Positions 2,662 through 63,965 of a stretch of DNA of 64,000 nt are shown here, in pieces. The DNA lies in NCBI GenBank assembly GCA_028864975.1, contig JAGWLG010000016.1, forward strand, positions 8,034 through 72,033. Reading direction: 5' to 3'. The DNA is from Thermoplasmata archaeon (lineage in GTDB: Archaea > Thermoplasmatota > Thermoplasmata > Lutacidiplasmatales > UBA184). The notes beneath the pieces were generated by a model, which was given only the letters and a program-made list of their open reading frames with translations, did not search any database and was not told the DNA's origin. The translations under genes were made by a program, and so were the position numbers. Within the stretch, counting starts at the first letter, position 1; the number at the start of each line of letters is the position of its first letter.

Positions 2662-5193
2662 ATGGGCCACCGCGGCGGCGCGCCGTGTGGGGTACCTCGA
2701 GCGGTCCACCGGGAACCTCGGGACCTCTTCGTCGGCGTCGTGGTGCTCGTGGGGGTCGTCGCTCTCCTGGTCCTTCCGGGGGCGTTGGCCGCCCCTTCGG
2801 TGCGCGTCGCTACCCCCTCGCCCGTTCCGGCGTTCCACGGGGGGACCTCGTCCGTCCTGGGGTCTCCTCGAACTCCTCTCACCCGACTGAACGGGGTCGA
2901 CGTGTCCAGCTACCAGGGCGGGATCAATTGGAACAGCGTCGCATCGGACGGGATCGTCTTTGCCTTCACCAAGGCGACCCAGGGCGACTACTACATCGAC
3001 TCGACCTTCGCTCCGAACGAGCAGAACGGGCACGCGGCCGGGGTCTACGTGGGCGGCTACGACTTCGCTGACCCGGTCAACGTCGGGGCCGTGACGGAGG
3101 CCAACTATTTCGACAGCGTCGCGGGTCCCTACTTCAAGACCGGGTTCCTCTATCCTGCCCTCGACCTCGAGCAGGGATGCGGGACGCTCAGCGTCACCGC
3201 GCTCTCCGACTGGACGAACACGTGGATGAGGACGGTCCAGTCCTACATCTCCGCCCACGGGTTCAACATCGTTCCGATCGTCTACATGAACAGCAACTAC
3301 GCCAACAACTGTGTCGATTCCTCGGTGGCCCAGTGGCACCTCTGGATCGCCGACTACTGCGGGGGATGCAACCCGAGCACCGGGGTCTTCCCATACTGGA
3401 ACTTCTACCAGTACTACGACTGCGGGTCCATCTCCGGGATCGGAGGCTGCGTCGATGTCGACTGGTTCGGCGGGGACCTCTCCGCGCTCCAGGGAGGCTT
3501 CGTCTTCGGTACGCCCCCCCTGACCGCGAGCTACTCGGTGGTGGACCGCACCACGGGGAAATCCCTCTACTGCGGCGATAGCTTCGCCTCGGGCGACACG
3601 ATCCAGTTCACGGGTAGCGCTTCGGGAGGCTCGCCGGGGTACTCGTTCGCGTGGGACTTCGGGGACGGAACGACCGGTTCCGGGAACCCCGTCAATCACG
3701 TTTACAACATGGTGGGGACGGTGAATCCCATCCTCACGGTCACGGACTCCAAGGGGGCGACCGCCAAGTCTGGGAGCGGGTGCGATTTCACGGTCACCGG
3801 GACCCCGGTGACCTTCTACACCCAGCCCCCCGGCGCGGCGACGATCCTCCTGGCGGGGAACCCGTACACGAACGGGCAGTCGACGATCCTCGTGCCGGGT
3901 CACAGCTATTCGCTGACCTTCGGCGCCTCCCCGTCCTACATCTTCTCCGGATGGAACTGGACGGGAGGGGTCACGATCTCTTCGCCGCTCTCCACATCGA
4001 CGACGCTCACCGTCACGAGCACCACGCCTGCGACGGTCACCGTCTCGTTCGTGACCCGGAGCTCGATCTACTTCCTGAGCTCTCCCAACGACAAGGCCTC
4101 GGTCGAGATCGGGGGGAGCATCTACAACAGCGGGCAGAACGTGACCGCCTCCGTCGGCACCCCGTACCCCCTGCTCGCCCTTCCGAACCCTGGCTACGTC
4201 TTCGTCCAATGGCAGGTCACGGGGACCGGCATCCAGGTCCAGTCTCCCGACCAAGCTTCCACGAACCTGACGGTCCTTTCCGCTGCATCCTCGACGCTGA
4301 CGGAGGTCGTCCTCTGGAACGTGCCGAAGGCTCCGACGGACCTGAACGTGATCGGGGCAACGAGCTCGTCGCTCACGCTCACTTGGGATCCGCCCCCCGG
4401 TGACCTCAGCGGCTACACCCTGGGGAGCAGCACGGGGGCGAGCCCCCCCAGTGGGATCGGCGGATTCCAGCTGACCTCCTTCGGAGGAGCGGGAAGCTCC
4501 TACGTCTTCACCGGGCTCGAGCCCCAGACGAAGTACTGGTTGTCGCTGGCAGGGGTGAACTCCACGGGGCAAGGTGGCTGGAGCGCCTGGACCTGGGGGA
4601 CCACCCTCGCTCTCCCGCAGCCCCCATCGGACCTGGTCGTGGACCGCCGCGGGAGCACCTGGGCCTACCTCTCGTGGCTGACACCGACCGGGGGGGCCTC
4701 GATCGGAAGCTATACTCTGAACTGTTCCACGAGTACCCCCGGGGCCTCCGACCGGATCGTCCCCGAAATCCCCACAAGTTCGACCGTCTACAACGCGACG
4801 GGGTTGACGGCAGGTGCGCATTATTCGTGCTTCCTGGTCTCGGTCTCAGGGGCGTACACGAGCCCGCCCTCCAACGACGCCGCCTTCACGCTCACCGGAG
4901 GAGCCGCCCCGCCTCCCTCGAACGGTGGCGGAGCTTGGTGGGAGGGCGTGGGGGCCTGGCTCCGGGGGACGCTCCGACCCCCGTTCGTCCTCGGCTGGGC
5001 GCTGGTCGCCGGGGCCGTGGTCGCCGCGGTGGGACTGCTCCTCTTGCGCAAGGGACGACATCACGGCGATGAGGACGACGCCGCGCTCGCGGAGGCTTTG
5101 GCCCGCCCCGAGCCTCCCGGCACGGTGGAACCGACCGGAAGTACGACCAAGGAACTCGAGGAGACTCGCCCGGGGCCCCCTGCCGGAAGCTGA
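2662..5193 (+). CDS. Membrane-anchored GH25 lysozyme/muramidase with PKD, Ig-like repeats, 2x fibronectin type III and C-terminal TM
   Basis: Signal peptide; GVDVSSYQGGINW, FAFTKATQG, PALDLE, LWIADY, FYQY and VDVDWF GH25 motifs; WDFGDG PKD; two FN3 domains (APTDLNV..SLTLTWDPP; PPSDLVV..AYLSWLTP); TM followed by RKGRHH. Confidence 0.92.
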   Translation: MGHRGGAPCGVPRAVHREPRDLFVGVVVLVGVVALLVLPGALAAPSVRVATPSPVPAFHGGTSSVLGSPRTPLTRLNGVDVSSYQGGINWNSVASDGIVFAFTKATQGDYYIDSTFAPNEQNGHAAGVYVGGYDFADPVNVGAVTEANYFDSVAGPYFKTGFLYPALDLEQGCGTLSVTALSDWTNTWMRTVQSYISAHGFNIVPIVYMNSNYANNCVDSSVAQWHLWIADYCGGCNPSTGVFPYWNFYQYYDCGSISGIGGCVDVDWFGGDLSALQGGFVFGTPPLTASYSVVDRTTGKSLYCGDSFASGDTIQFTGSASGGSPGYSFAWDFGDGTTGSGNPVNHVYNMVGTVNPILTVTDSKGATAKSGSGCDFTVTGTPVTFYTQPPGAATILLAGNPYTNGQSTILVPGHSYSLTFGASPSYIFSGWNWTGGVTISSPLSTSTTLTVTSTTPATVTVSFVTRSSIYFLSSPNDKASVEIGGSIYNSGQNVTASVGTPYPLLALPNPGYVFVQWQVTGTGIQVQSPDQASTNLTVLSAASSTLTEVVLWNVPKAPTDLNVIGATSSSLTLTWDPPPGDLSGYTLGSSTGASPPSGIGGFQLTSFGGAGSSYVFTGLEPQTKYWLSLAGVNSTGQGGWSAWTWGTTLALPQPPSDLVVDRRGSTWAYLSWLTPTGGASIGSYTLNCSTSTPGASDRIVPEIPTSSTVYNATGLTAGAHYSCFLVSVSGAYTSPPSNDAAFTLTGGAAPPPSNGGGAWWEGVGAWLRGTLRPPFVLGWALVAGAVVAAVGLLLLRKGRHHGDEDDAALAEALARPEPPGTVEPTGSTTKELEETRPGPPAGS

Positions 5194-5536
5194 GCGCTCG
5201 TTCCAGACTTCGCGCCGACCCTCGGTGCGCGACGGGAGGCCCCCGCACGGAGCTCCTTCAGTGCAACCCCCACCCGGCGCCCCGAGAGGTCTTTCCCGTT
5301 CCGAGCCCATCTTCAGGGGGGGCGATGACCCACGTGCCGACCATCTGGCAATGGAGGAGACAGGCCGTGAAGGGGGATGGTCATCGAGCGGAAAGGGTCC
5401 TGCTCGAGTGGCCGTCCATGGACTCGAGCGGATTGCGCCATCGGGTTCCGCGAGCCGACCGGATTGCGGGGGTGACGGTCCTTGAGGACTCGCGGCTCCT
5501 CCTGGAGCGCTGGGTCGAGCGAGATCGGGGACCACC

Positions 5537-8500
5537 GTGGTGGCCAGAACGCTCATTTACCACATGATTGGATGCGCACCCATGTACCACGGGCATCGCT
5601 CGCGGGTCCACCCCTCCAACGATGAGATCGCCACGGCTAGGAAGCTCTACAGGTCCGTGAGGGGGCCGCTCGGCCCACGAGGTTGCGCCCTCGCGTCGCT
5701 CGTGGTCCTTCTCATGGGGATCCCCCTCCTTCCGACCGCCACCGACGTCGGGGGCGCCGTGCGATCCCCTAGCGGCCACCTTGGCGACCCTACCTCGGCG
5801 GCTCTGATCGTCAAGGGGCCCGCCTCGCTGCTCGACGGACGCGCGGCGTCCACCGCCTCGACTCTGACCTCTCTGCCCTCCTCCTCCCCCTCTGGCTCCT
5901 CCTCGTCCGTCCCTCGATCCGGCCCTTCCGCCTCGACCCCACCCGCCTCCTCTGGCTCCCCCCTTACGGCGAGCGGTGGTTCGGTCGCTTCCGCGACACC
6001 CTCCCCCACGTCGAGCGCGGGAACCGAGCTCCTCCAAGGAGCTCAACGCTCGCTCGAACAAGGACAGGGGCCGGCCCGGGGCACCGCGTGGAACTGTGGT
6101 CAGCCCGCGGGAGGGGGGAGCGAGAGCTGTGCCGCCAGCTCTGGGTCTTCCGCCGACGTCCTCTCGGCCCCTTCGAACCCCAGTTGGGCCTTGCTCGGGA
6201 CCCCCTCCCCCCGTTTGGGGGCGACAATGGCCTTCGACCAGGCGGACAACGAGGTCGTCCTGTTCGGCGGCGAGAACTCGGCGGCGCAGGGGGACACGTG
6301 GACCTTCCGCGCGGGCAGCTGGAGCCCGGTGGTCACGCCGGTAGAACCGACCCCTCGCGGGTACGCCAGCATGGCGTACGATGTGGCCGACGGGTACGTC
6401 CTCCTCTTCGGCGGGGTCGCCCCAGGGGCCGGGTACCTTCAGGACACCTGGACGTTCAGTGCGGGCTCTTGGACCAAGCTCGCCTCCGCGACCTCTCCCG
6501 GGGTCCGCATCGCCGCCTCGATGTCCTACGACGCGGCCGACGGATACCTGGTGCTCTTCGGCGGGAAGGGGTGTTCCACCGCGAGCAGTTGTGCGGCGAC
6601 AGACCTTCAGGACACCTGGAAGTTCGTCGGTGGGGTCTGGGCGGAGCTCTTCCCCGCAAGCTCCCCCGGGATCCGGGAGTTCTCGATGGTGGGGTACGAC
6701 GCTTACGACGGTTACGTGCTTCTCTTCGGAGGATATGGGTGCACGACCGGGAGCTCTTGCTCGGAGGGGCTCCTGCAGGACACTTGGTCCTACAAGGCCG
6801 GGACCTGGAGCTTGGTCACCGGGAGCACGCCCCCGGGAACGCGGGAGGCCGCGGCGCTCGCTTACGACCCCACGATGAGCGGGCTCATCTTGGTCGGGGG
6901 GGACGGCTGCAGCACGGGGAACGCGTGCGCATCGTACTACCTCCAGGACACCTGGCTGTACCTCAAGGGGGCGTGGTCGCAGCTTACGCCGAACGCGGTC
7001 CCTGGGATCCGGGACCTGATGCCCATGGCCTACGATGGCGTGGACGGTTATCTCCTCCTGTTCGGCGGGCTCGGCTGTTCCGATGCCTCCTCTCCGTGCC
7101 CGATCTCCTACCTCCAGGACAGCTGGGTCTTCGCGGCGGGCACCTGGACCGAGCTCACCTCCCCCTCCTCCTCTCCCGGGGTCCGGGGGATCGCGACGCT
7201 GGCCTACGACCCTATTGACGGCTACGTGCTCCTCTTTGGCGGGTATGGCTGCGTCGTCGGGAGCACGTGCACCGCGGGGGATCTCGGGGACACCTGGACG
7301 TTCCAGGCCGGGACCTGGACCGAGCTCTTCCCGAACCCGTCGCCGGGGGCCCGGGACGGGTCGGCGCTGGTCTACGACGCGGCCGACGGGTACATGTTGC
7401 TCTTCGGGGGATACGGTTGCAACACGGGGAGCACCTGCACGCTCGCCGACCAGCAGGACACCTGGACGTGGGCGGGAGGAAGTTGGACGCAGCTCGCGCC
7501 GCCAGCTCCTCCGGGGGCGCGCGTCGCGCCCGCGATGAGCTACGACCCCACCGATGGCTACGTCCTCCTGTTCGGAGGGTACGGTTGCACGACCGGAAAT
7601 ACCGGTTGCACGTCGTTCCTTTCGGACACCTGGGACTTCCGAGGGGGAACGTGGACCCAGCTCGCGCGCATCGGTCCCCCACAGCGCTACATCGCGTCGA
7701 TCGCCGACGACGCGGCGGACGGCTACGTCGTCCTGTTCGGGGGTCTGGGATGCGAGAACTATCCCACCTGCTCCGCGTACGGGGAGCTCGCGGACACCTG
7801 GCGCTACGCGGGGAGCGGGAACTGGGTGAACATGACCTCGACGGCGGGGGGGCCACCGCCCGCGCGAGACGGGGCCGGCATGGCCTTCGACACGGCGGAC
7901 AACTATCTCCTCCTCTTCGGCGGCTTCAGCACGACAGGGTCCGACCTCTCGGACAGTTGGAAGTTCCTAGGGGGCAGCTGGACCGCGCTCTCCCCGACCC
8001 TCGCCCCCGGCGTACGACGCTACACCGAGATGGCCTACGACGGGCATGACGGGTTCCTCCTCCTCCTCGGGGGCAACGGCTGCACCTTCGGCACGTCGTG
8101 CGCCGTGAACTGGATGCAGGACTCCTGGGCGTATGGGGCCCCGCTGACGAGCGCTATGGTCGTCGCCTCTTCCGCGAGCCGCGACGTGGGTCAATCGGTG
8201 ACCTTCACCGCCGGGGCGACCGGCGGCGGGAGCGGCTCCTACCAGTTCCTATGGGCAGGGCTCCCCCCTGGGTGCGTTCCGACCTCGCCCGCCCCCGGGG
8301 TCACCTGCGCACCCACGACCGCCGGGACCTTCCAGGTCAGCACGGTGGCCGAGGACTCCACTGGAGCGCCGCAGGCGACCAGCGGGACCCTCGCGTTCAT
8401 GGTCTACAGCGACCCGACAGCCGCTGCGTCGGGATCGACCCCTTCCATCGACCTCGGCCAGTCGGCGACCTTCACCCTTTCCACCTCGGGAGGGTCGGGA

Positions 8501-11500
8501 GGCGATGGCTACGCCTGGAACGGCCTCCCCACAGGCTGTTCCTCCTCGGCGGGCCTTTCCGACACCTGCACGCCCGCGCTCGCCTCCGCCGAGGGGGCCT
8601 GGTCGGTCTCCGCGACGGTCACGGACTCGAACGGGTACTCGGTCAGCTCTGGGGGGGTCGCCCTCACCGTCGACTCCGACCCTTCGGTCGCGGCCCCCTC
8701 CGAGAGCCGCACCGCGCTCGACGTGGGACAGGTCCTGAGCCTCTCGACCACGGTGTCGGGAGGTTCGGGAGGATATGCCTTCACCTGGTCGGGACTCCCG
8801 ACTGGATGCAGCTCGGTGAATGCTCCGTCCCTGAGCTGCTCTCCGAGCGCGGCGGGGGCCTTCTCTTCGATCTCGGTCAGCGCGCTGGACTCGAACGGGG
8901 TGATGGGCGGCTCGCCCATTGCGGCGTCGATCACGGTGTCGGCCTCACTCGTGGTCCCGACACCCACCTCGTCACCCGGGACCCTGGACCTCGGGCAATC
9001 GACCACGCTCGCGCTCTCCCCCTCGGGGGGCCGGGCGCCGTACACGATCAGTTGGTTCGGCGTACCCACCGGATGCACGGCGAGCGGGACGAGCTTCCTT
9101 TGCACGCCGACGGCCACGGGAACGTACTCAGTCTACGCGACGGATGCTGACAGCAACGGCGCCACGGTGACGAGCGGCGCGGTCACGGTCAATGTGCTCG
9201 CCGACCCCCAGATCGTGAGCTTGGCCTCGAACCGTTCGGCCACCGACCTGGGGACCGGATTCACGATCACCGTCCAAGCCATCGACGGCACGGGAAGCTA
9301 CTCCTACACGTGGACCGGGCTCCCGCTCGGTTGTGTCGTCCCTGGCCTTTCGACGATCACCTGCAAGCCGACCGTCGTGGGTCCCTTCACGCTCAGGGTC
9401 TACGTCAACGACAGCACCGGGACGTCGACCAGCCAGACGCTCGCCCTGATGGTCGACAGCGACCCAACGACGACCGCGCCAACGGCGAGCCCTACCTCCC
9501 CGATCGACGCGGGATCGAAGGTCGTCTTCCAGACCACCGCGAGCGGCGGGAGCGGAGGCTACAGCTACACCTGGGTCGGGCTCCCGTCGGCAAGCTGCCC
9601 CGTGGCCATCGGGTCCTCGCTCGAGTGCGACACACTAGGAGTCGGCAACTACTCGGCCTCCGCGCTCGTCCGCGACTCGAACGGGGTCGGTTACGCGAGC
9701 GGCGCGCTCGCCTTCACGGTCCTCCGCGACCCGGTGCTCTCGAATGTCGTCGCGAACCGGACCGCCATCGACGTGGGGGCGCGAGTGATCTTCAACGCGA
9801 CGGCCTACCGGGGGCAGGGTCCGTACAGCTACGACTGGTCCGGTCTCCCGGCGGGGTGCTCGAGCGCGAACACCGCGATGCTTTCCTGCCTCGCGACGGG
9901 GAGCGGGAGCTTCAGCGTGGGGGTCTCGGTGGCCGACGCCGTGGGGGGATCCGCGAGCAGCACCACGCTCGGCTACGTCGTCTACCCCGACCCCTCGCTC
10001 TCCTCGCCCAGCGCGAGCGCGACGACCCTCGACTTGGGACAGTCGGTCGCCTTCTCGACGACCCTCTCTGGAGGGTCGGGGGGCTTCTCCTTCACGTGGA
10101 GCGGGCTCCCCGGCACGTGCTCCGGGACGGGCGGGTCCAGCCCCTCCTGCACCACGACCGCGGCGGGGAACTTCTCCATCATGGTCTCGGGCAAGGACTC
10201 GGCGGGGGCCTGGACCTCGAGCACTTCCCTCGCCGTGAGGGTCCTCAAGGACCCCGGCGTGACGACCCCGACCGCCGTCCCGTCGGCGGTGGACATGGGC
10301 GAGAGCACGACCTTCTTCGGATACGGGTGGGGAGGGGAAGCCCCCTACACCTATTCCTGGTCCGGGCTCCCCGCGGGGTGCACCTCGTCGAGCGCGGCCA
10401 GCCTGAGCTGCACGCCCACCTCGGCCGGAGGCTACACCGTGCAGGTGACGGTGACGGATGCGCTCGTCGTCTCCGCGACGAGCCCGACCCTCACGTTCAC
10501 CGTGTCGGTCGCCCTGGTGGTCTCCCCCGTGACCTTGAGCCCCGGGTCCATCGATGACGGGCAGTCGACCACCTTTTCGACCTCGGCCTCCGGGGGGGTG
10601 GCGCCGTACGTCTACGCCTGGGCCGGACTCCCTTCAGGGTGCCTGAGCGCGAACACCGCCTCGATCCTCTGCACGCCGTCCCCGTCGACCTCCGGCACGT
10701 TCTCCATCGTAGCCTCGGTGCGGGACGCCCATGGGATGAACGTGAGCTCGAGCCTGGCCTCTCTGACCGTTCTCGCGGCGGTGGCGGTGGGCGCCCTCAC
10801 AGCGACGCGGGGTTCCCTCGATGTTGGCCAGGCGACGACCCTCTCGGCGACGGCGGCTGGGGGGACGGGGGTCTACAGCTACACCTGGTCCGGCCTACCG
10901 ACCGGCTGCGGGAGCGTGAACTCGGCCACGCTCACCTGCACGCCCACCGGGTCGGGCACCTTCGCCAGCGTGGGCGTCCGGGCCACGGACACGAACGGCC
11001 AGGGCTCCTCGAGCTCGCCACTCTCCCTCGTGGTCGCTCCTGACCCCACCATCTCGATCCCCACCGCGACGCTCTCTGCCCTCGATGTGGGGCAGACGAC
11101 CACGCTCACCGTGTCAACCACGTCGGGAAGCGGTGGCCCCGTCTACGCGTGGGTCGGGTTGCCGGTGGGTTGCCCGAGCGCCAACGCGTTGAGCGTGGCC
11201 TGTACGCCCGCTTCGGGCGGGACCGGGACCTTCACCGTGAAGGCCTCGGTCGTCGACTCGAACGGCGACAATATCTCCTCCGGACCGCTGACGCTCTACG
11301 TCTACCCCGCGCTCGGCGGCGCAAGCCTCACCGCCACCCGAGGTTCCTTGGACGTGGGAGAGAGCACGACCCTCACCGCCTCCTCCACCGGAGGGTCGGG
11401 GGGCCTCATCTACGCTTGGAGCGGGCTCCCCAGCGGCTGCCCGGGAGGGAACGTGCCGACGGTCGCTTGCGTGCCCACGTCCCCCGGCTCGGTGAGCGTC

Positions 11501-15561: not shown

Positions 15562-18500
15562 TCAGCGCGGGGGCGGGGGCGGTGGTGGGGGCCAGGAGGG
15601 AGGGGTGGGAGTGAACATTGGACCGTAAGGAGGGGGCACGCTCGCGCGCCGTCGCTTCCTCGCGAGGAGGACCGCGACGACGATACCCACGATGGCGACG
15701 GCCAGGACCGCCAGCACGAGAGGGCTCGTGAGCAGACCGACCAGGTCCCCAGCTCCTCCGTTCGATGGGGCGGGGGTGATGGTCACCTGGGCAGACCCTT
15801 GGGCGCTTTCACGACCCGTGGCCGTCACGGAGACGGTGATCGTCGCGGTGACCGTCGACGAAGGCGATGGGGCGGTGAGCTGCGCATCGAGCTTCCCGGC
15901 GGTGTCGGTAGCGCCGGAAGCAGGGGTGATGGTGCCCTGGTCCACCGTGAGGGCTAGGGTTGCTCCCGAGATGGGGGCGCCGCTCCCATCCGTCACCGAG
16001 ACCACAACGGCGACGGTTCCGCCCGCCGAGATCGTGTTCGGGGTGGGGGTGACCACGACGGCCATCGGGAGCACAACATACAGACGAAGCGTGCCACTTC
16101 CAGTGGTGTAACCGGGCTCGGACGCGTGGGCGGTCAGGGTTACCGTGGTCGCGGAGGAAGGGGACGGTGCGGTCAGAAGGAGGTCGACGGTCCCGTTCGT
16201 GGGGGTCGTCGCCCCCATCAGGCTGAGGGAGCCGGAGGTGACCGAGAAGGACTCAGAGGCGCCGGCGACAGGGGACCCCGCGCTCTCCAAAAGGGCATGG
16301 ACGGCCACCGTGCTCCCGGCGACCGCCTCGTAGCTGGCGGCGGAGAGGTTGAGCAAGAGCGGCGGCGCAGGGTCGATCTGCACCGTCGCGGTGAGCGTCG
16401 TCGGCGCGTACCCGCTCTTCGAGAGCGCGACCGAGATCGTGTCGGTCGAAGGAGATGCGACGCTCGACACGGTGAGGTTCGTGAACGCCGCGCCGGCGGC
16501 GGTAGAGGACGTTGAAGGAGGAGAGAAGGTCCCTCCCAGGCTGTCGGTGAAGGTCGCCGTGGCTCCCTGGATGGGGGTGCCGGAGGAGACGATGGCCACG
16601 GTGATCGCGGCGGGGAGACCCGCGGTCGTCGCTCCCGAAGGGACCGACACGCTCCCGGTGAGCACCGGCTGGTCGACGACCGCGGCGTAGACGCCTCCCG
16701 GATGCGCAAGGCTCGCCGAGGCGTTGGCCCACACATCCAGTGTAAGGGGGACCGAGGTCGCCGGGAGGGTGAAGTTCGACCAGACGCTGCCCCCCACATT
16801 GGTGGTACCGGAGGCGGGGGAGAAGAGATCGCCCTTCTGATCGGCGAAGGCGACCGTGGCTCCCGCCACGGCACCGCTGGTATCCGTGACGGAAGCATGG
16901 ACCGTGACATGGGACCCCGGATTGCCGGGGTTCGGGGTAACCGAGAGCGCGACCGAGAGCGTCGGCTCAGGGTCCAAGGTCAGCGTCGCGGTCCCGTTGT
17001 TCCCCGGGTGCCCTGGGGCGGTCGCGGCCGCGTCCACCGTGTCGGAGGTGGGGGTAGTCACCGAGGGGGTGGTGAAGTTCGCATAGGCATACCCCGCCGC
17101 GTCGGTCGTCGTGGAGGCGGGGGTGAAGGAACTCCCGCTCGTGTCCGAGAACCCGACGTTGGCCCCAGAGACCGGGGACCCGCTGGGGAGCGAGACGTAG
17201 GCAACAGCGGCGACGGTGCTGCCACCCACAACGGAAGCCGAGGGGGTCGGGGTGAGCGTGACCTGCAGAGGAAGCGGGTCGATGGTGATCACGGCCGTCC
17301 CTGACCCGGGGTTGTACCCCCCTGCGGTGGCCGACGCGGTGATTGTGTCGGAAGTTGCCGCGAGGACGGTGGGAGCGGTGAAGTTCGTCCAGGCGTTGCC
17401 GTTGGCCCCGACGGTGACGGGGTTGGGGGAGAAGCTGTCCGTGAGGGTGTCCGAGAAGCTCACGGAAGCCCCGGGGACCGGGACGCCGGCGGATGTCACG
17501 CTCGCTATGACGGCGACTGTCGAGCCGGAGGTCGCCGAGCTCGAGGGTGTGGTCGTGACCGAGACCGAGAGGGTCGGGGTGCCGCTCGGGTTGTAGATGG
17601 CTTCGAGCGGGGAACTCCCGTTCATGGCGACATTCGTGAGCGCGCTCATGGACGAGGCGAACATCCCCTGCCAGTGCGAGAAGGTGTAGCCGGTGACGCT
17701 CGCAGGGACCGAGATGTTGTGCACCGTTCCGCGGGTCCAGTACTCGGTCGACGGGAGGGCGGTCGAGACGCCGTCCACCGTCGCGGTCACTCCGGCGATG
17801 TTCGCCGAGAGGTCCAGCCAGGCGAGCTGCCCCACGTAGAGGTCCTCGTTCATGTTCCCCGTGACCCCATTGCGGAAGTCGGTCCAGACCGAGAAGTCCC
17901 CGGCGGGGCTCCAGAAGGTGTTCTCGTAGTCCCCCATGAACGCTGACCAGACCGTCGGGTTGCCGCTGACCGAGGAGACCCGGACGTTCCGCGCGAAGGT
18001 CTGCCCTCCATCCTTCGAGACCGCGACGGTGGTGTCGACGTAGAAGTCCCCGGGGACGTACCTCCGGTCCAGGAACTCGACGTAGACCGTGCCGTTCTTC
18101 CCGACGGCCAGCTGGGGGAACCAGTGGTCCGCTCCGTCGCTGGGGTCATTGTTGACCGAGATGGGGGAGCTCCAGCTAGAGCCGTAGTTCGTGGAGCGGA
18201 GCAGACGGATCTGAAGAGAGCTCACGTTCTCCGTGTAGACGATGTAGAGGTCGCCCTTGTACGGGCTTCCCGCAGAGGTGTCGCCAAAGATCTGGGGGAA
18301 GCAGTTCATCCGACCCACCCCCCCGATCGCGGGGAACCCAGAGCTTCCGGCCGGAGCACACGTGATCGACCCCAGGTTGGCCTCGGCGGAGAAGGCCCCG
18401 CCGGGGGCCGTGGCCCGCGAGAACTCGAGGTCAGAGCCGGTCGCTCCTCCCTCCCATACCACATCCACTCCGCCCGAGGAGTCGACGGCCAGGCCCGCGG

Positions 18501-54208: not shown

Positions 54209-56440
54209 ATGCTTCCTAGAAGAGCGAGCTCGCACGCGAGCGCCCGGAACCGCCGAGACCGACCGCGAACGCACGCTCGATCCGCTGCGACCCGAGCCCC
54301 TCGCCGGTGGGGTCGAGCCACGATGGCGCTCGCCTTCCTGGTCCTCGCCTCGCTCGGCGCCACGATCTTCCTAGCAGCGGGGAGCTCGCACCTCCCCTGG
54401 TCTCCGCGTGGCAGCGATTCCCCTGCCGTCCACGTTTCGCCCGAGCTCGTCGAGGGTTCGGGGAACTTGTCCGTCGTTCTGGACACGACCACCCCGTCCG
54501 TCGATCTGGGCGAGACGATCACCCTCTCGGCCCAGGTTTCGGGGGGGACGCTCCCGTACACCTGCAAATGGAGCTCGAGCGACGAGCTGACGAAGGTCGG
54601 TTCCTGCACCGGTTGGTCGTTCGTCTCCAACGCGACCGGCACCGTGGCCATCGGTCTCAGCGCGACGGACGCCTTGGGCAAGCGAGGGCAGGCGACGCCG
54701 CTCTCTATCACCGTGGCCAGTCCGCTATCCCTTGACCTCGGCCCCGGGCCCTTGCAGGGTGACGCTGGGATAAGGCTCCGGATCCCTTCGACGGTCGCCA
54801 ACGGCACGGGGACGGCGACCTGTTCGTGGTGGTTGGACCAGCAGCTCGTGGCGAGCGCCACCAGCTGCATCGCGTTCGAGCTCACCGTGAACTCCGGGGG
54901 GCAGCACACGCTCCAGGGGACCGCGACGGACTCCGCCACCCCGCCCGCGAGCGCCCGGGCGACCCTCCTGCTCGACATCCGCCCGGCCTTGACGGTCGTG
55001 CTCGCGCCCTCGGACCCGCACCCCACGCTCCGGGAGCTCATTACCATCTCCGCGACCGTTAGCGGTGGATCGCCCCCGACCGATGTGGAGTGGTCGATCA
55101 ACGGGACTCCCGAGGTGGGGACCGCGCTGACGTTCCAGTTCGAGACCGATCATGCCGGGACCTACGCGTTCACCGCGAGCATCACCGATGCAGTGGGGGG
55201 CTCCGTGTCGAGCCCACCGCTCGCGATCCAGGTCGGAGGGACCCCCTCGGCCACCACTTCTCCACCTCCTTCGAATTCATTGCCTCCCGCTCCCGGCCTC
55301 CTACTCGGGCCTCTTGCGATCGTGGCGCTCGCAGGAGTGGCCGTCGCGCTCTTCCTCGGCGCACGACGATTGCGGGGGGAGCGGCTCTCAACTTCGCAGG
55401 GGAGGGCGGGCGCCCCGCCTCCTCCTTCGGGTGTCTCGCCCGGTCCTCGCTCCCTCCTAGGTCCGACCGTCCCGCCTGCAGCCCTGGCCTCTCCGCCTCC
55501 TCCCCCTCCTCCCGCGGTTCCGCCTCCCCCACCACCGTCCACCTCCGCCCCTGTAGCCCCGAGAACGGTCGCGGTCCACCCGACGCGTGCCCCCACGTCG
55601 AAGGTCTCCCGGCCGATCCCCCCTGCTTCCAAGGATCGGCCCCCAAAGGTCGAACCGACGATCGCGTCGCGGGCACCCACCCCGCAGAGTTTCCCCCGGG
55701 TCGAAGCGGATTCGCTCGCGCCCAAGACGGCGTCCGGCAGCCTCGCTGGGACACCTCCATCGCCCGCAACGACCTCTACTTCTGCGGGAGCTCCGAGAAG
55801 GCCGGGGCTCCTGTCGCAGGGGAAGGTCGGTCCAGTTCCCTCCGCCGAGCCTTCGAAGGTCGGGCCAAGGAGCCCCTCCCTCGAGGTCCCCCCTAAGCCC
55901 CGACCCGAGCCAGGTCGACCCGGGTCAGGCCGACCGTCCCGCGCGCGCACGTCGACCGAGGTCAAGGTGCGAGAGCTGAGTTCGATCGCTCCCGCTCCAT
56001 CCGGCAGGCCCGACCCTGCCCCCCCAGTCGCCTCCCTGCCTGAGGCTTCCCAACTGCCTACGACTCCTCCAAGACGATTGTCCCGTATCCCAGCGCCGGA
56101 CCTTCCCTCGGAGTCGCTCGTGGGCCAAGCATGCCCTTGGGTGCCGATCCACCCTATCGAAGGCCGTTCCGTGTCGGTCCTGACGACCGCGACCGAGGCG
56201 GAAGACTCGTCAGGAAGCTCGGTCGATGCCCCACTCGATCCCCCCTCGAGCAGCTCGGAGCCGTCGCTGGAGCCCCCGGGACCCATCCCCCCTCCCGCCC
56301 GATGCCCGAAATGCCACGAGATCCTTCCGATCGGAAGGGCCAGGCACGACTGCCCTCCGGCGGCCGAGCTCGAGTCCATCCTCCGAGAACTTGCCCAGGA
56401 CCCGCTCCACGACGACCGAACGGCTCGCCCTCTCCACTAG
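54209..56440 (+). CDS. PKD/Ig-like x3 membrane protein with ~360-aa disordered cytoplasmic tail ending in a CxxC...HxC zinc finger
   Basis: Signal anchor; VSGGTLPYTCKW, CSWWLD and VSGGSPPTDVEWSING domains; TM then RRLR; CPKCHEILPIGRARHDC. Start uncertain (54116, 54209 or 54323). Confidence 0.8.
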   Translation: MLPRRASSHASARNRRDRPRTHARSAATRAPRRWGRATMALAFLVLASLGATIFLAAGSSHLPWSPRGSDSPAVHVSPELVEGSGNLSVVLDTTTPSVDLGETITLSAQVSGGTLPYTCKWSSSDELTKVGSCTGWSFVSNATGTVAIGLSATDALGKRGQATPLSITVASPLSLDLGPGPLQGDAGIRLRIPSTVANGTGTATCSWWLDQQLVASATSCIAFELTVNSGGQHTLQGTATDSATPPASARATLLLDIRPALTVVLAPSDPHPTLRELITISATVSGGSPPTDVEWSINGTPEVGTALTFQFETDHAGTYAFTASITDAVGGSVSSPPLAIQVGGTPSATTSPPPSNSLPPAPGLLLGPLAIVALAGVAVALFLGARRLRGERLSTSQGRAGAPPPPSGVSPGPRSLLGPTVPPAALASPPPPPPPAVPPPPPPSTSAPVAPRTVAVHPTRAPTSKVSRPIPPASKDRPPKVEPTIASRAPTPQSFPRVEADSLAPKTASGSLAGTPPSPATTSTSAGAPRRPGLLSQGKVGPVPSAEPSKVGPRSPSLEVPPKPRPEPGRPGSGRPSRARTSTEVKVRELSSIAPAPSGRPDPAPPVASLPEASQLPTTPPRRLSRIPAPDLPSESLVGQACPWVPIHPIEGRSVSVLTTATEAEDSSGSSVDAPLDPPSSSSEPSLEPPGPIPPPARCPKCHEILPIGRARHDCPPAAELESILRELAQDPLHDDRTARPLH

Positions 56441-58470: not shown

Positions 58471-58488
58471 AACCCTGCCCCCCGGGGT

Positions 58489-59586: not shown

Positions 59587-59738
59587 GCGACGCTCGCCCT
59601 CTCCGGAAAGGCAAAGTGTCAGCTTCGCGCCCGAGTATCATACTTACGGGTGCCGATACACGAGGGACGAGGGCGCCCGCCGGATTCCGGAGAGTGTCGG
59701 CGCTCGGCCCCGTCGGGGGGTCTGTGGGCGGCGTTCCC

Positions 59739-60161: not shown

Positions 60162-60310
60162 GGTCGGCCCCGGGCCGGGTACATGCACCCTGGCCAAGAA
60201 CGTTGGGAGGTCGGGCGAGTGGCGTTCAGGGACCCATTCGGGGTGTGCGCCCGCGACGGTCCGCGCGGGCGTTCTCGGACCCCGAACGGGCGACATGGTT
60301 CTCGAGGAGG

Positions 60311-60322
60311 GAAGGGTTAATT
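60311..60322 (+). promoter_or_regulatory. BRE/TATA-like promoter of the last Kelch-PKD gene
   Basis: GAAGGG-TTAATT about 35-40 bp before ATG 60357. Confidence 0.45.
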
Positions 60323-60356
60323 CTCTGCTCGCTCCCCGACGCGCCTTCGAGGTTCG

Positions 60357-63300
60357 ATGCTCCGTTCGAGACAGCGCCACGGGCGGCTGGCCATCCTCGG
60401 AATACTTGCTCTCACGACCCTTCTTCTCCTTCCCGGATCGCTCCCCGGCAAGGTAGGAGCGGTGGGACCGACGCTCAAGGTCCTGGGGCCGCTGTCGACG
60501 CGGGAGGGGGGGCTCGCCCCTCTCGGCGCGGGGCCGCCTGCGACCCCTGCGCCCCAGGTCTCCCGAGATCGGGGATCTGCCTGCGGGACCACCCCCACAG
60601 CCGTTGCGGCCTGCCGCGCGGCCCTCGAAAGCCTCTCACCCACGACATCCGGCCCCCTCCCCGCAGGGACCCCGTCGTGGAACGTGAGCTGCTCGACCTG
60701 CTCTCCGATCGCGCGCGAAGGACCTTCGATGGTCTACGACGCGGCGGACGGCTATGTGCTCCTTTACGGCGGGCTCCAGGACGTGTCGAACCAGGAGCCG
60801 GGGGACACCTGGACCTACAAGGCCGGCGTCTGGACCCAGCTCACCCCCACCACGGCCCCGTCGCCTCGCGTCGGCGCGGGGATGGCCTACGACGCGGCCG
60901 ACGGGTACGTCGTCCTTTTCGGAGGCGCTGACGAGCACTCGAACAACTACTACGCGGACACCTGGGAGTTCCTGGGCGGGAGCTGGACCCTGCTCTCCCC
61001 CAGCACCTCCCCCTCGGCGCGATACTTCCCGTCGATGACTTATGACTCGGCCGACGGCTACGTGCTGCTCTTCGGTGGCGCGGTCAGCACCTCGGTCCCT
61101 CTCGGTGACACGTGGAGCTTCGTCGGGGGGCAGTGGACGAACCTGGGCACGCTCGGCCCGCCCCCTTCCCGGTACACGGCGGCGATGGCCTACGACGCGG
61201 CCGACGGCTATACGATCATGTACGGTGGCCTCAGTGGCACGACCTACGAATCGGACACGTGGGAGTTCCTCGGAGGAGGCTGGACCCAGCTCGCCCCGGC
61301 CACGAGCCCCGGCAAGCTCGCGAACATCGGCGACATGATGGTGTGGGACAGCTCGCTCGGGTCGGTCCTCCTGGTGGGCGGGGACTCGGGCACCTCAAGC
61401 TGCACGTCCAACACCTGGACCTTCAAGGGCGGGAGCTGGACCCTGCAGGGCCCTTCGCCCTCGCTCCCCAAGCGCGCGCAAGGGGGGCTGGCCGACGACC
61501 CACCCGACAGCACGGCGCTGGAGTTTTCCGGATGGAACTGCGGAACCCCGATCACCGACTACACGGACGCTTACACCTACTTCGGAGGTTTCGCCCCTCT
61601 GAGCGCGACCCTCACCGCGACCCCCTCCTCGACGGACATCGGGCACGCAATCGCCTTCACGGGGACCGCGCACGGGGGCTTCCCGCCCTACGCGGTCGCG
61701 ATGCGGTTCGGGGACGGAGGGGCGGCGACCTCGCTCACGACCTCCCACACGTTCAGCGCTCCCGGAAGCTACACCGTGTGGCTCTGGGTGAACGACTCCT
61801 CCTCGGGATCGGTCACGGCCTCGGCAACGGTCTTGGTGAACGCGCTCCCGACGGTCCATCCGATCATCGCCCCGAACCCGGTGGATGTCAACGTCACCGC
61901 GGCCTTCGCCTCAGGGCTCACGGGTGGGACCGCGCCCTTCCAGTACGGCTGGCGCTTCGGAGACGGGACGAACAGCAGCGCGGCCGCCCCGGCGCACGCC
62001 TACGGCGCGCTCGCCATCTACACGGTCGTCGTCTGGGTCAACGACTCCGTTGGAGCGTCCACGACCGCTTCGACCACGGTCGCGGTGGACCCCGCGCCCA
62101 CGGTGTCCGCCTCGGCCCGTCCCACGACCACGGACGTAGGGCTCCCCGTCAGCTTCTCGGCCACCCCCGGCGGAGGGACCCCTCCGTTCCACCTCGCGTG
62201 GAACTTCGGGGACGGAGGCACCGGAACGGGAACCACGGTCTCGTACAGCTACACCACTCCCGGAAACTACACCTCGCATGTGTGGGCGAACGATTCGGGG
62301 GGCGGAAGCGCCGGGGCGCTGCTCATGATCGTGGTGGACCGAGCTCCGGGGACCCCGACGACGCTCGCCGCGTCCCCGAATCCTGCGGATGCCGGGACCA
62401 GCGTGGCCTTCTCCGCCGCCTATGGGGGAGGGACACCCCCCTTCTCGAACGCCTGGGCGTTCGGGGATGGTTCCTTCTCGTCCCAGGGAGCCCCCACCCA
62501 CGTCTATGTCCGGCCCGGCAACTTCACCGTCCGCTTCTGGGCGAACGACAGCGCGGGTGCGAGCGCGACCGGCGCGCTCAGCGTGAGGGTCAATGCCGCG
62601 CTCACGTTGACATCGTTCCAGGGGGTCTTCGCCTCGGGGGCCCCTGGGACGCTCGACCTGGGTCAGGTGCTGAACACGTCGCTCTCGACGACCGGGGGCA
62701 CCTCTCCGCTCTCCTACACGTACTTGGGGACGCCCCCCGGCTGCTCCTCCGTGGACCGCCCGAACCTGCTCTGCACCCCCAACCAAACCGGGACCTACCG
62801 CATCGAAGCGGAAGTGTCGGATGCCGCGGGTGCCCACGATTTTGCGAACCTCACCGTGACGATCTCCCCCGCGCTCGTGCTCGCGTCGTTCTTCCCCTCC
62901 GACCGGCAGGTCTCGGTCGGAGCGGCCGATTCCCTGGTGGTGCAAGCGAGCGGAGGGGTCGCGCCGTACACGTTCACCTACCTCCGTTTGCCCCCGGGAT
63001 GCGCTTCCCAGGACACGGGGCGTCTCCCCTGTGTCCCCGCAAGGTCCGGGATGTTCGTGCTCGAGGTCGAGCTCCAGGACCCGACGGGCGCTCTTCTCTT
63101 CGCGAACAGTTCGCTCGAGGTGAACCCCGATCCCGAGATCACCTCGTTCGAGGTCTATCCGAGCAACGCGACCTGGGGACAACGCGTGAACTTCGTCGCG
63201 GTACTCTCCGGAGGGACCGGGACGCTGAGCGTGATCTACTCCGGATATCCGACGGGATGCTCGGCGCTCGGAGCGACGGGGGGGACGTGCGTCCCGGGCG

Positions 63301-63965
63301 TGGCGGGGACCTTCCACGTGCACCTCACCGTGGTCGACACGGACAACCGGGAGGCGAACGCCTCGGTCGTGCTCCACGTGGCTCCCGCGCCCAGCGTTCT
63401 CGCCGAGTTTCTCGGGGCGTACTGGTGGGGTCTTGTCCTCGTCTTGGTGGCGGCGGTCGCCTTGCTGGTCTATGCCTTGGACCGGCGCCACCGCCGACGC
63501 GCCGAGCTGGCGGGGCTTGCGGACGGAGTTGCGCTCGATGGGATGCCGCAGGCGGCCCCGGCCCCGGAGGGCCACCCCATGGTGGACGACACCATCCCCA
63601 TGACCCCGGGAACCGGGACGGATGCCCGCGCACCTGAACCGGGTCCGCACCCTCCCGGGACGGAAGAGAGCGGGGCCCCTGACGGATGGAAGGCCGTGCC
63701 GCTCTCCCCCCAGGCCCACATCTCCTCAGGACCCGACGAGGGTCAGCTACCGAGCTCCGACACCGTCCTACCCTACGACCCGAGCCCCGCGGCCAAGGTG
63801 GGAGAGACCGCCCCGTCCGGGGGCCTCAGCGTGGCCCCGACGGTCACTCCATCAGCGACCGGTCCTGCTCCCACGGCCGCCCTCGCAGACCACCGATGCA
63901 CGGTCTGCGGCACGCCCCTTCGCGCTGACCAGGTCTGCCCCTCCTGCGGCATCGTCTGGCACTAG
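60357..63965 (+). CDS. Surface protein: 6 Kelch-like repeats, 4 PKD, 3 PxGC Ig domains, TM, tail with C-terminal zinc ribbon
   Basis: Signal peptide; MAYDAADGY..LFGG..DTW repeats; four FGDG PKD motifs; TPPGC/LPPGC/YPTGC; TM then RRHRRR; CTVCG...CPSCG. Confidence 0.9.
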   Translation: MLRSRQRHGRLAILGILALTTLLLLPGSLPGKVGAVGPTLKVLGPLSTREGGLAPLGAGPPATPAPQVSRDRGSACGTTPTAVAACRAALESLSPTTSGPLPAGTPSWNVSCSTCSPIAREGPSMVYDAADGYVLLYGGLQDVSNQEPGDTWTYKAGVWTQLTPTTAPSPRVGAGMAYDAADGYVVLFGGADEHSNNYYADTWEFLGGSWTLLSPSTSPSARYFPSMTYDSADGYVLLFGGAVSTSVPLGDTWSFVGGQWTNLGTLGPPPSRYTAAMAYDAADGYTIMYGGLSGTTYESDTWEFLGGGWTQLAPATSPGKLANIGDMMVWDSSLGSVLLVGGDSGTSSCTSNTWTFKGGSWTLQGPSPSLPKRAQGGLADDPPDSTALEFSGWNCGTPITDYTDAYTYFGGFAPLSATLTATPSSTDIGHAIAFTGTAHGGFPPYAVAMRFGDGGAATSLTTSHTFSAPGSYTVWLWVNDSSSGSVTASATVLVNALPTVHPIIAPNPVDVNVTAAFASGLTGGTAPFQYGWRFGDGTNSSAAAPAHAYGALAIYTVVVWVNDSVGASTTASTTVAVDPAPTVSASARPTTTDVGLPVSFSATPGGGTPPFHLAWNFGDGGTGTGTTVSYSYTTPGNYTSHVWANDSGGGSAGALLMIVVDRAPGTPTTLAASPNPADAGTSVAFSAAYGGGTPPFSNAWAFGDGSFSSQGAPTHVYVRPGNFTVRFWANDSAGASATGALSVRVNAALTLTSFQGVFASGAPGTLDLGQVLNTSLSTTGGTSPLSYTYLGTPPGCSSVDRPNLLCTPNQTGTYRIEAEVSDAAGAHDFANLTVTISPALVLASFFPSDRQVSVGAADSLVVQASGGVAPYTFTYLRLPPGCASQDTGRLPCVPARSGMFVLEVELQDPTGALLFANSSLEVNPDPEITSFEVYPSNATWGQRVNFVAVLSGGTGTLSVIYSGYPTGCSALGATGGTCVPGVAGTFHVHLTVVDTDNREANASVVLHVAPAPSVLAEFLGAYWWGLVLVLVAAVALLVYALDRRHRRRAELAGLADGVALDGMPQAAPAPEGHPMVDDTIPMTPGTGTDARAPEPGPHPPGTEESGAPDGWKAVPLSPQAHISSGPDEGQLPSSDTVLPYDPSPAAKVGETAPSGGLSVAPTVTPSATGPAPTAALADHRCTVCGTPLRADQVCPSCGIVWH

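Follow-up and report, generated by a model that had tools for sequence, protein, structure and literature searches.

The nine surface-protein genes of the analyzed window (the whole DNA stretch of 64,000 nt) probably belong, as ordinary members, to a very large family of N-glycosylated surface proteins with a type-I membrane anchor, expanded specifically in the lineage of this uncultured Thermoplasmata archaeon; the family would form an exposed coat and a tethered repertoire. The window is the densest patch of this genome-wide family, and the layout of its genes is not special to the locus. As archaeal surface proteins they are of a known kind, present here in an unusually large set.

Nine genes of one layout

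All nine ORFs were present (Table 1) and their translations were free of stop codons. Their third-position GC content of 0.85-0.88 agrees with genuine coding sequence at a genomic GC content of 68%; the nine ORFs were thus taken as real. The exception was the tail half of the P0008 gene (0.71). The ORFs spanned 37,743 nt in sum, or 59% of the window.

The common layout consisted of a signal peptide, a head, a PKD/Ig-like stalk, one C-terminal transmembrane (TM) helix, a basic patch and a Pro-rich tail. Inspection and a simple hydropathy script, used rather than a trained predictor, assigned an N-terminal hydrophobic signal-like segment and a single C-terminal TM helix to each protein. Behind the helix followed 2-6 Arg/Lys residues and a tail of 33-361 aa. 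The stalks ranged from one domain (P0004) to 19 domains (P0002). These results confirm the first-pass annotation, which had described nine membrane-anchored ORFs of one layout on ~59% of the window, with stalks of 1 to ~20 domains and heads on eight of them; P0008 was headless, as implied there. The genes of P0006, P0005 and P0004 were translationally coupled by 4-nt overlaps, which hints at a coordinated use of these three. Most genes had upstream regions of their own.

Table 1. Genes of the common layout in the window (positions in nt)
Protein	Position	Strand	Length (aa)	Architecture	Parts
P0001	2662..5193	+	843	signal peptide, GH25 muramidase head, PKD, two InlB-B-repeat-like, two FN3, TM, 49-aa tail	GH25 head 2896-3441; TM about 4972-5043
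P0002	5537..13810	+	2757	about 12 Kelch blades, 19 PKD-like 'GLPxGC' domains, TM, 98-aa Pro-rich tail	Kelch blades 6179-8290; PKD-like domains 8459-13441
P0003	15562..19443	-	1293	roughly 450-aa head with Asp-box-like motifs, one InlB-like, six Big_1-like, TM, 33-aa Pro tail	head 17809-19146
P0004	23024..24757	-	577	YVTN seven-blade-type propeller, one PKD-like domain, TM, 61-aa Pro tail	propeller 23576-24433; start overlaps stop of upstream gene by 4 nt
P0005	24754..28623	-	1289	double Kelch propeller, PKD-like stalk, TM, 79-aa tail	propeller 26404-28281; 4-nt overlap with each neighbour
P0006	28620..34001	-	1793	weak Kelch-like N-terminal region, one PKD-like, unassigned residues 600-1410, three PKD-like, TM, 92-aa tail	Kelch-like region 32502-33704; residues 600-1410 at 29772-32204
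P0007	41357..47584	-	2075	YVTN-type propeller region, about 13 PKD-like domains, TM, 100-aa acidic and Ser-rich tail	propeller region 45212-47125
P0008	54209..56440	+	743	headless, three Ig/PKD-like domains, TM, 361-aa Pro-rich tail with CxxC...HxC motif	start ATG 54209 (743 aa) or TTG 54116 (774 aa); Ig/PKD-like domains 54512-55285; motif 56303-56353
P0009	60357..63965	+	1202	single Kelch propeller, about seven PKD or PKD-like, TM, 160-aa tail ending in CxxC-x10-CxxC zinc-ribbon-like motif	propeller about 60660-61586; motif 63891-63962
Tenth protein (genome census)	1..163	-		first ~54 codons in the window	

Most of the head assignments of the first-pass annotation stood. The GH25 head of P0001 reached 115.9 bits against PF01183 (Pfam cut-off 27) and aligned to Cellosyl (1JFX) with E = 4e-25; D9, D98 and E100 were conserved in this alignment, so the catalytic Asp/Asp/Glu residues are intact. 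Kelch propellers were supported in three proteins (P0002, P0005 and P0009), all with Kelch matches over the cut-off. Both YVTN propellers exceeded the TIGR02276 cut-off of 27.85 bits and matched PDB 1L0Q, with 71.3 bits and E = 3.2e-26 for P0004 and 40.2 bits and E = 1.4e-10 for P0007, where Pfam PKD was matched as well.

Two assignments are weakly supported. The Asp-box identity of the P0003 head is suggested by ESM-Atlas feature matches to BNR_2 clusters at 0.90 and by a Pfam BNR score of 21.9 bits, below the cut-off of 27; its stalk matched Pfam Big_1. For the Kelch-like part of P0006, the Kelch_3 match (E = 0.009) was below the cut-off, and only PKD exceeded it in this protein. Residues 560-1420 of P0006 matched no family, and a PDB search of this region gave no match either.

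Genome-wide extent of the family

The census yielded about 148 proteins of at least 500 aa with this layout, occupying 538 kb or 14.9% of the 3.6-Mb MAG; the underlying gene set was an in-house ORF call (minimum length 120 aa, filtered by GC3), which makes these counts approximate. In total, about 660 PKD-like domains were found in 127 proteins, Kelch in 48 and YVTN in 23 proteins. A first-look PKD count of 564 was the highest among the 81 Thermoplasmata genomes searched, most of which had fewer than 70. The Pro content of the tails was 19% genome-wide, compared to 7.6% for all proteins. PQQ propellers, a Pro-kumamolisin/S8-like protease (sedolisin-type) and phosphoesterases were found as further tethered heads, and GH25 was carried by only 4 of the about 150 members.

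The tenth protein at the edge of the window (G000:C54:5074-8196) was 1040 aa long, with a 548-aa head, five PKD-like domains and a TM helix. Directly upstream of it an eleventh protein of the layout was located (C54:1655-4516). Neither of the two heads matched a Pfam family.

Clustering of the family was about twofold, with 16 adjacent pairs observed versus 8.2 +/- 2.8 in shuffles. A 64-kb stretch of equal density arose in 3.5% of the gene-order shuffles, so that the window is barely special as an 'island'. The initial view that the locus houses an armoury, or system, of its own was thus not upheld.

The ectodomains contained 1.71 N-x-S/T sequons per 100 aa, where 0.94 were predicted from composition alone, while 0.12 were found in the tails and 0.25 in other proteins. 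Additionally, an STT3/AglB homologue was present in the genome.

Orthologues and domain shuffling

Colinear full-length orthologues were present in congeners for six of the nine genes (P0001, P0003, P0005, P0006, P0008 and P0009). Identities were 57-69%, with the exception of P0008 (36-37%), and the adjoining non-surface genes were 53-84% identical. Conservation decreased from heads (74-85%) to stalks (62-64%) to tails, and the stalks showed no indels. P0001 had orthologues of equal architecture in G001 and G002 (60-63%), those of P0005 were about 60% identical, and P0009 was found at full length in G001-G003 (57-58%), its orthologues in G001 and G002 being in synteny with those of P0008. The P0003 orthologues shared 84-85% in the head and 63% in the stalk; this head was also 69-83% identical in five other Thermoplasmata MAGs. 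In P0006 the middle region was best conserved (79% versus 45% for the N-terminal region). The first-pass annotation had proposed swappable heads and named fixed-architecture orthologues as evidence against them; such orthologues were found for two thirds of the set, and head swapping on a short timescale was not supported.

For P0002, P0004 and P0007 the congeners offered no orthologue of the same architecture, which indicates a fast turnover of part of the set. The syntenic site of P0002 held a 32%-identical giant gene in G002 and nothing in G001; its best head match in the congeners was 44%, within a 1132-aa ORF. At the syntenic position G001 and G002 lacked P0004, whose best match at other sites was 42%. 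A search of five related genomes with the P0007 head gave nothing at E <= 1e-30.

The proposed modularity was borne out among paralogues, with one head class on different stalks and one stalk under different heads. Residues 271-743 of P0001 shared 57.6% identity with the paralogue C101:14740-17610, which carries an unrelated head, or 54% when TM helix and tail were counted. This replacing head occurred together with GH25 in another protein. The stalks under GH25, Kelch and YVTN heads were 51-53% identical to each other. The four GH25 paralogues of the genome were located on different stalks, and across relatives GH25 was found on at least six stalk types or architectures. The best partner of the head differed from that of the stalk in 34 of 44 proteins. 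Nearest mosaic paralogues were only 47-58% identical in protein, which makes these events old; the nearest paralogue of P0009 (C121:80747-84610) was 48% identical over the whole length. Judged from these identities, domain shuffling is real but old.

An active diversification, in which cassette recombination, phase variation or a diversity-generating retroelement alters heads within the population, is extremely unlikely. It would fit the three genes without orthologues and the wide discordance of head and stalk partners. However, neither tandem nor near-identical DNA repeats were found in the 89.6%-complete assembly, and the dispersed repeats were all short and 60-86% identical. No diversity-generating retroelement was found, the only two reverse transcriptases of the genome being located inside group II introns, and the age of the mosaic paralogues argues against it as well. 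A dedicated head-swapping machinery was not found.

Proposed role and related systems

We consider it unlikely that the proteins form a coordinated combinatorial armoury, predicted to grip, sense or lyse neighbours as one system with interchangeable binding or lytic heads at graded heights. The intact GH25 head, with bacterial murein as its known substrate, would suit such a role. According to PMC4241558 and PMC12352652, a GH25 muramidase from Aciduliprofundum boonei kills bacteria, as do published enzymes of this kind, and peptidoglycan hydrolases are prominent in Thermoplasmatota. Like P0001, these include a GH25 domain in an archaeon without murein of its own, whereas P0001, compared with the enzymes as described there, sits on a stalk of five domains with a TM anchor and has three GH25 paralogues beside it in the genome. 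The translational coupling, the stalk range of 1-19 domains, the occurrence of heads on varied stalks and the joint occurrence of GH25 and its replacing head also point in this direction. Against it stand the rarity of GH25, the scatter of weakly clustered genes over the whole genome, the separate upstream regions of most genes and the stable orthologues of six genes; neither a link between stalk length and type of head nor a common regulator or partner was identified. Quite unlikely, too, is a mainly structural role as a dense glycosylated protective coat (a glycocalyx in place of an S-layer) on a wall-less cell, with head identity being minor. The 15% of coding capacity, the strong sequon enrichment and a best structural match labelled 'Surface layer protein' (1L0Q) agree with it. 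Furthermore, the 89.6% complete assembly yielded no archaeosortase; anchoring by a TM helix may thus be the default route of envelope building. But the heads are the best conserved part of the orthologues, which argues for a specific binding or catalytic function, the GH25 catalytic residues are retained, and a lattice-forming coat needs no ~150 different proteins.

As members of a coat with a tethered repertoire, the proteins would be exported via the N-terminal signal peptide and retained by the C-terminal helix as a stop-transfer segment. The Arg/Lys patch would set an N-out, C-in orientation and leave the Pro-rich tail in the cytoplasm, while the stalk of PKD-like and other Ig-like domains would keep the head away from the membrane. 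The heads would either bind through beta-propellers (Kelch, YVTN, probably BNR) or act as hydrolases, namely the GH25 muramidase in the window and the sedolisin-type protease and phosphoesterases elsewhere. The ~150 proteins would most likely serve adhesion and polymer breakdown including bacterial wall material, functions that would have to be membrane-tethered in a cell with no periplasm. Genes that were duplicated, and domains that were shuffled, on the evolutionary timescale of a family would account for the mix-and-match appearance, with no dedicated mechanism.

Sortase-anchored adhesins and surface enzymes of Gram-positive bacteria combine signal peptide, head, repeat stalk and C-terminal anchor with basic patch, and their heads and stalks recombine across paralogues. 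They provide a working analogy for layout and recombination, but lineage, anchor chemistry and stalk domains are unrelated and the LPXTG motif is absent here. Archaeosortase A substrates with PGF-CTERM, such as the S-layer glycoprotein of Haloferax volcanii, likewise anchor glycosylated surface proteins by a C-terminal hydrophobic helix and basic patch. Here, however, the tails comprise far more than a few residues, and the PGF-CTERM model was not matched; the anchor looks like a permanent TM anchor rather than a sorting signal.

The first-pass annotation knew of no description of the arrangement as a system, yet archaeal surface proteins with propeller and PKD domains were reported in 2002 and again in PMC5498576. 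The latter describes strain-specific PKD/Kelch/YVTN surface proteins, proposed to act in cell-cell interaction, in the micrarchaeon 'Ca. Mancarchaeum acidiphilum' Mia14, four of which make up about 2.5% of its genome. In both organisms, large proteins of notable genome share unite Kelch and YVTN propellers with the PKD fold. However, Mia14 is a tiny symbiont, and its set of about eight is fused to CARDB-like modules, whereas in this 3.6-Mb Thermoplasmata genome such proteins are roughly twenty times as numerous, are anchored by TM helix plus tail and include enzyme heads. The surface-layer protein of Methanosarcina mazei (PDB 1L0Q; Jing et al. 2002, Structure 10:1453, as cited in PMC5498576 and PMC10354927) is similarly a secreted archaeal protein, in which PKD domains come after an N-terminal YVTN propeller of the seven-blade type, and few domain types make up many paralogues. 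The present family differs by its wider range of heads (Kelch, GH25, BNR-like, PQQ, protease, phosphoesterase and many unknown), by the Cys-containing 'GLPxGC' PKD variant as commonest stalk unit, by its TM helix with a long Pro-rich, putatively cytoplasmic tail, and by its scale.

Nine predicted surface-protein genes within a genome-wide family

The nine ORFs which the first-pass annotation had grouped by a common layout were all present at their positions in the window and could be translated cleanly. Their summed length of 37,743 nt corresponds to 59% of the window, as proposed. GC3 ranged from 0.85 to 0.88, and was lower (0.71) only in that half of the 54116/54209 gene which encodes the tail. 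Since such values are the mark of true genes in this genome, the nine ORFs are regarded as real genes. The window, which corresponds to positions 8034–72033 of contig C54 (G000), had a GC content of 65–71%.

Each of the encoded proteins, here named P0001 to P0009, carried a hydrophobic signal-like N-terminus, a large Ser/Thr-rich ectodomain and one C-terminal hydrophobic helix, which was directly followed by 2–6 Arg/Lys residues and a low-complexity tail of 33–361 aa. The intervening genes were unrelated housekeeping genes or small modules (RibD_C, amino-acid permease, DUF835, HTH regulator, O-methyltransferase, thiolase, hemerythrin, SDR, DUF998 and methyltransferase).

To describe the whole assembly (3.61 Mb, 124 contigs, 89.6% complete) a set of 2,487 ORFs with a minimum length of 120 aa was used, covering 83% of the DNA. 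The same layout was found in 148 proteins with a length of 500 aa or more, which account for 538 kb or 14.9% of the assembly. By HMMs derived from the modules of the window, PKD-like domains were detected in 127 proteins (approximately 660 domains), Kelch repeats in 48 and YVTN repeats in 23. Thus, about 15% of one uncultured Thermoplasmata genome is occupied by some 150 predicted membrane-tethered modular surface proteins, an extent that has seldom been quantified in archaea. In a first-look search of 81 Thermoplasmata genomes the PKD count was highest in this genome (564), followed by counts of 447, 317 and 268, while most genomes had fewer than 70.

It had been assumed that the locus represents a discrete system. 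The densest 64-kb stretch of the assembly is located on this contig (C54), with 59–62% compared to a median of 9%. When gene order was shuffled the maximum density was 0.475 ± 0.057, and such dense windows were dominated by few giant genes. The idea of a special island was weakened because 3.5% of the shuffles reached the density of 0.59 as well. Additionally, 16 adjacent family pairs were observed with 8.2 ± 2.8 expected. The clustering of the family is real and modest, and with about 150 members distributed over the genome a discrete system at this locus was not upheld. We would rather regard 'islands' of such genes as local peaks of a genome-wide family than as separate systems.

In four of the nine proteins (P0001, P0005, P0006 and P0009) the signal-like segment had an LLxLPG-type end, L-L-(L/V)-L-P-G, in front of the likely cleavage region, and the segment of P0003 ended with LLPP. 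Of the 148 family members, 26 had P-[GP] after a run of hydrophobic residues, which may be a lineage-typical feature of signal peptides.

Heads, stalks and probable membrane anchor

The heads of the nine proteins are listed together with all coordinates in the table. The GH25, Kelch and YVTN assignments of the first-pass annotation stood with scores above the family cut-offs, whereas the Asp-box assignment of P0003 and the Kelch-like part of P0006 were weak. PF24681 (Kelch) scored 128–129 bits in P0002 and P0005 and 92 bits in P0009 (cut-off 50), while P0006 missed the Kelch cut-off (Kelch_3, 16.6 bits vs 22). YVTN repeats were found in two of the nine proteins, with TIGR02276 scores of 71.3 bits for P0004 and 40.2 bits for P0007 (cut-off 27.85). 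For the head of P0003, PF02012 remained under the cut-off of 27 (21.9 bits) and no PDB sequence match was obtained. Its ten best Atlas feature matches were all BNR_2 or BNR clusters (0.88–0.90), and the pLDDT of a single-sequence AF2 model (35) was too low for use of the fold.

No Pfam family or PDB relative was found for residues 600–1410 of P0006. Between congeners no other part of P0006 was as well conserved as this middle region (79% vs 45% for the N-terminal Kelch-like region). It contains long hydrophobic strand-like runs.

P0001 matched PF01183 with 115.9 bits (cut-off 27) over all 180 profile positions (1–180) and was aligned to Cellosyl (1JFX) with E = 4.1e-25. The catalytic residues Asp9, Asp98 and Glu100 (Cellosyl numbering) were conserved; in the alignment GVDVS is paired with GIDVS and LDLE with LDIE. 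In total, four GH25 loci were found in the assembly by Pfam search, among them proteins with a PKD-Big_1 stalk (contig C15) and an InlB-PKD stalk (C97). A Pfam scan of twenty unassigned heads of the family revealed three PQQ-type propellers, all on Big_1-like stalks, one Pro-kumamolisin/S8-like protease and two phosphoesterases (PF04185); the remaining heads of these twenty matched no Pfam family.

Coordinates of the analyzed features (numbered ORFs and window positions refer to the window; C numbers are contigs of the assembly, G000)
Feature	Location	Strand	Description
P0001	ORF 2662		GH25 head
P0002	window 5537-13810	+	head of ~twelve Kelch blades; Kelch families above cut-off
P0003	ORF 15562		Asp-box-like head, weakly supported
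P0004	window 23024-24757	-	YVTN head; TIGR02276 above cut-off; PDB 1L0Q, E = 3.2e-26
P0005	ORF 24754		double Kelch head
P0006	ORF 28620		sub-threshold Kelch-like region and 800-residue middle region
P0006, residues 600-1410	window 29772-32204	-	middle region
P0007	ORF 41357		YVTN head; TIGR02276 above cut-off; PDB 1L0Q, E = 1.4e-10
P0008	ORF 54209		without head
P0008 tail	window 56303-56353	+	motif CxxC...HxC
P0009	ORF 60357		single Kelch head
P0009 tail	window 63891-63962	+	zinc-ribbon-like motif CxxC...CxxC
Signal-peptide regions	window 2700-2800, 28480-28560, 33880-33950, 60400-60450		L-L-(L/V)-L-P-G
P0010, X-domain protein	G000:C101:14740-17610	-	~240-aa domain, residues ~60-300
Other anchored members	C98:22722-27020, C75:38846-41641, C44:7010-10531, C29:67130-70177, C51:5288-8110, C105:6400-10176		protease, phosphoesterase or PQQ heads
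STT3/AglB-like match	C97:13419-14162	-	sole match in the assembly
Group II introns	C92:48600-50500 and C32:78900-80100		intact RT ORFs, 429 and 475 aa

The stalks consisted of PKD domains, a Cys-containing 'GLPxGC' PKD variant, and Big_1-like, InlB-B-repeat-like and FN3 domains. Their number ranged from one (ORF 23024) to 19 (ORF 5537), in good agreement with the initial estimate of 1 to ~20. In P0007 PKD domains were located C-terminal to the propeller and exceeded the cut-offs of PF00801 and PF18911. In P0004 the Pfam score of 19.7 bits was below 23.5, while a genome-built PKD-like HMM placed one domain at residues 420–497.

The family's ectodomains contained 1.71 N-x-S/T sequons per 100 aa, compared to 0.12 in the tails and 0.25 in all other proteins; from composition only, 0.94 would be expected for the ectodomains. 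The Pro content of the tails was 19% compared to 7.6% genome-wide. Taken together with the basic patch, these values are in agreement with glycosylation of the ectodomains and a type-I topology (N-out, C-in). The signal-like N-termini, the enrichment of sequons and the paired Cys residues in stalk domains are indirect signs of a surface location. Furthermore, an STT3/AglB homologue is encoded in the assembly. This sole match lies inside an open frame of 2,205 aa, far longer than the usual archaeal oligosaccharyltransferase.

The C-terminal helix could serve as a sorting signal or as a permanent anchor. The NCBIfam PGF-CTERM model matched none of the nine proteins, and archaeosortase A (TIGR04125) was not detected in the assembly while control genomes matched as expected; since the genome is 89.6% complete, this does not prove absence of the enzyme. 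PGF-CTERM substrates carry the signal at the extreme C-terminus, whereas the proteins of the window extend for 33–361 aa past the helix. Based on the missing matches to both models, a permanent anchor is more likely than a sorting signal.

Recombination of parts and conservation in related genomes

The default composition-based blastp search missed a 47%-identical GH25-PKD match of 410 aa between two family members, for which phmmer gave E = 1e-88. Because this GH25 paralogue was lost under composition correction, the family analyses were run by phmmer, or by blastp without composition-based statistics. Searches within such a compositionally biased family need this correction to be switched off.

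The heads had initially been described as swappable between stalks. Indeed, stalks with 51–53% identity to one another bear GH25, Kelch or YVTN heads. The best head partner differed from the best stalk partner in 34 of the 44 proteins with clear relatives of both parts, some of this incongruence being noise among repeats of 36–40% identity. A clear case of recombined parts is a stalk-anchor unit of 54–58% identity that is combined with a muramidase in one protein and in another with a very rare domain, here referred to as X domain. Residues 271–743 of P0001 (PKD, two InlB-like and two FN3 domains) were 57.6% identical to the paralogue P0010 on contig C101, or 54% when TM helix and tail were included, while the first ~300 residues of P0010 were unrelated to GH25. 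A search of 1.84 billion representatives yielded the X domain in just three proteins. One of these, P0011, carries GH25 at the N-terminus and the X domain at the C-terminus. GH25 was found in various further arrangements in relatives: in front of 6–7 GLPxGC domains with a TM helix, after an N-terminal region of 613 aa, and with a PKD domain on one side and a 620-aa region of unrecognised type on the other. In another family it was located C-terminally in a protein of 1,615 aa that had no C-terminal anchor.

An AF2 model of the X domain from a three-row alignment reached a pLDDT of 31, and no usable Atlas match was obtained. Its invariant stretch reads G-x-E-[TS]-x-F-G...D-[IV]-M-Q. In our own reading this might recall a lytic transglycosylase motif, for which a Pfam match to SLT_2 with E = 0.21 was the sole support.

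The syntenic locus was compared in two congeneric genomes by tblastn. P0001, P0003, P0005 and P0006 had colinear full-length orthologues of 60–69% identity, while non-surface neighbours showed 53–66% and the thiolase 84%. The P0001 orthologues were of the same architecture, one with an extra PKD domain. Full-length orthologues of P0009 (57–58%) were present in all three congeners used for comparison, syntenic with P0008 orthologues of 36–37% identity. Identities of head, stalk, and TM helix with tail were 74%, 64% and 31–34% for P0001, 84–85%, 63% and 42–44% for P0003, and 69%, 62% and 33–41% for P0005, respectively. Since the heads were conserved above stalks and tails, and the stalks were almost free of indels, the pattern points to purifying selection acting on the heads and not to an arms race.

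Other members were less conserved at the site. In place of P0002, one congener had a giant gene of 32% identity and the other had nothing, and no match to the P0007 head was found in five relatives at E ≤ 1e-30. Both congeners (G002:C37 and G001:C88) lacked P0004 at the position between their orthologues of P0005 and P0003. ORFs 28620, 24754 and 23024 are connected by 4-nt overlaps, which suggests co-translation. This trio is not a fixed unit, as 23024 is absent from the site in both congeners. The start of P0004 overlaps the stop of P0005 by 4 nt here, although the congeneric site lacks P0004.

Tandem DNA repeats were not found, nor were near-identical repeats of the template or cassette type close to a reverse transcriptase or recombinase gene; dispersed repeats shared 60–86% identity and did not exceed 132 nt. 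Diversification of the DGR type was rejected, since both reverse transcriptases of the genome belong to group II introns, the RNA domains of which were identified next to both RVT_1 genes (Rfam). The modular composition and the shuffling of parts were thus confirmed, while fast or dedicated swapping was not. As judged from the sequences, head swapping is a feature of the evolution of the family and not a current mechanism.

Function and known relatives

The best-supported reading of the family is a putative tethered ectoproteome, in which propeller binding modules and, in a smaller share, hydrolases would be presented on Ig-like stalks with a TM anchor. It could act as an exposed coat, in adhesion and in the extracellular breakdown of polymers. 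Bacterial murein is a plausible substrate of the GH25 heads, which might serve the lysis of neighbouring cells or the use of wall debris as food. Earlier reports describe an Aciduliprofundum GH25 that kills bacteria and peptidoglycan hydrolases as prominent in Thermoplasmatota (PMC4241558, PMC12352652). If the tethered GH25 proteins are active, surface-bound forms would join these recently recognised antibacterial hydrolases of archaea.

The first-pass annotation had considered the arrangement as not described before. The kind of protein was in fact already known: archaeal surface proteins with YVTN propeller and PKD domains were described with a structure in 2002 (1L0Q; as referred to in PMC5498576 and PMC10354927), and in the micrarchaeon Mia14 PKD/Kelch/YVTN surface proteins make up 2.5% of the genome and were proposed for cell-cell contact (PMC5498576). 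No literature on expansions of PKD or Kelch surface proteins was found for this Thermoplasmata lineage within a limited coverage. The kind of the nine proteins is known and the unusually large repertoire is new. The present analysis adds the genome-wide count, the rank among the sampled members of the class, the controls by gene-order shuffling for 'islands', the region-wise conservation of orthologues and the concrete mosaic pairs.

A more far-reaching proposal would be that the ~150 Pro-tailed type-I proteins, about one eighth of them with a zinc-ribbon-like motif, couple binding or lysis outside to a cytoplasmic partner, and that tethered muramidases and propeller adhesins would together allow a wall-less cell to feed on bacteria in a contact-dependent manner. 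We consider this improbable. The eukaryote-like surface organisation of this lineage that forms part of the same proposal is, in our view, a long shot as well. We are not aware of a function for a zinc ribbon in such a position, at the cytoplasmic end of a surface protein. A motif of this kind was present in the tails of 20 of the 164 anchored surface proteins of the assembly, and in 12 of these 20 it ended at most 14 residues from the C-terminus.
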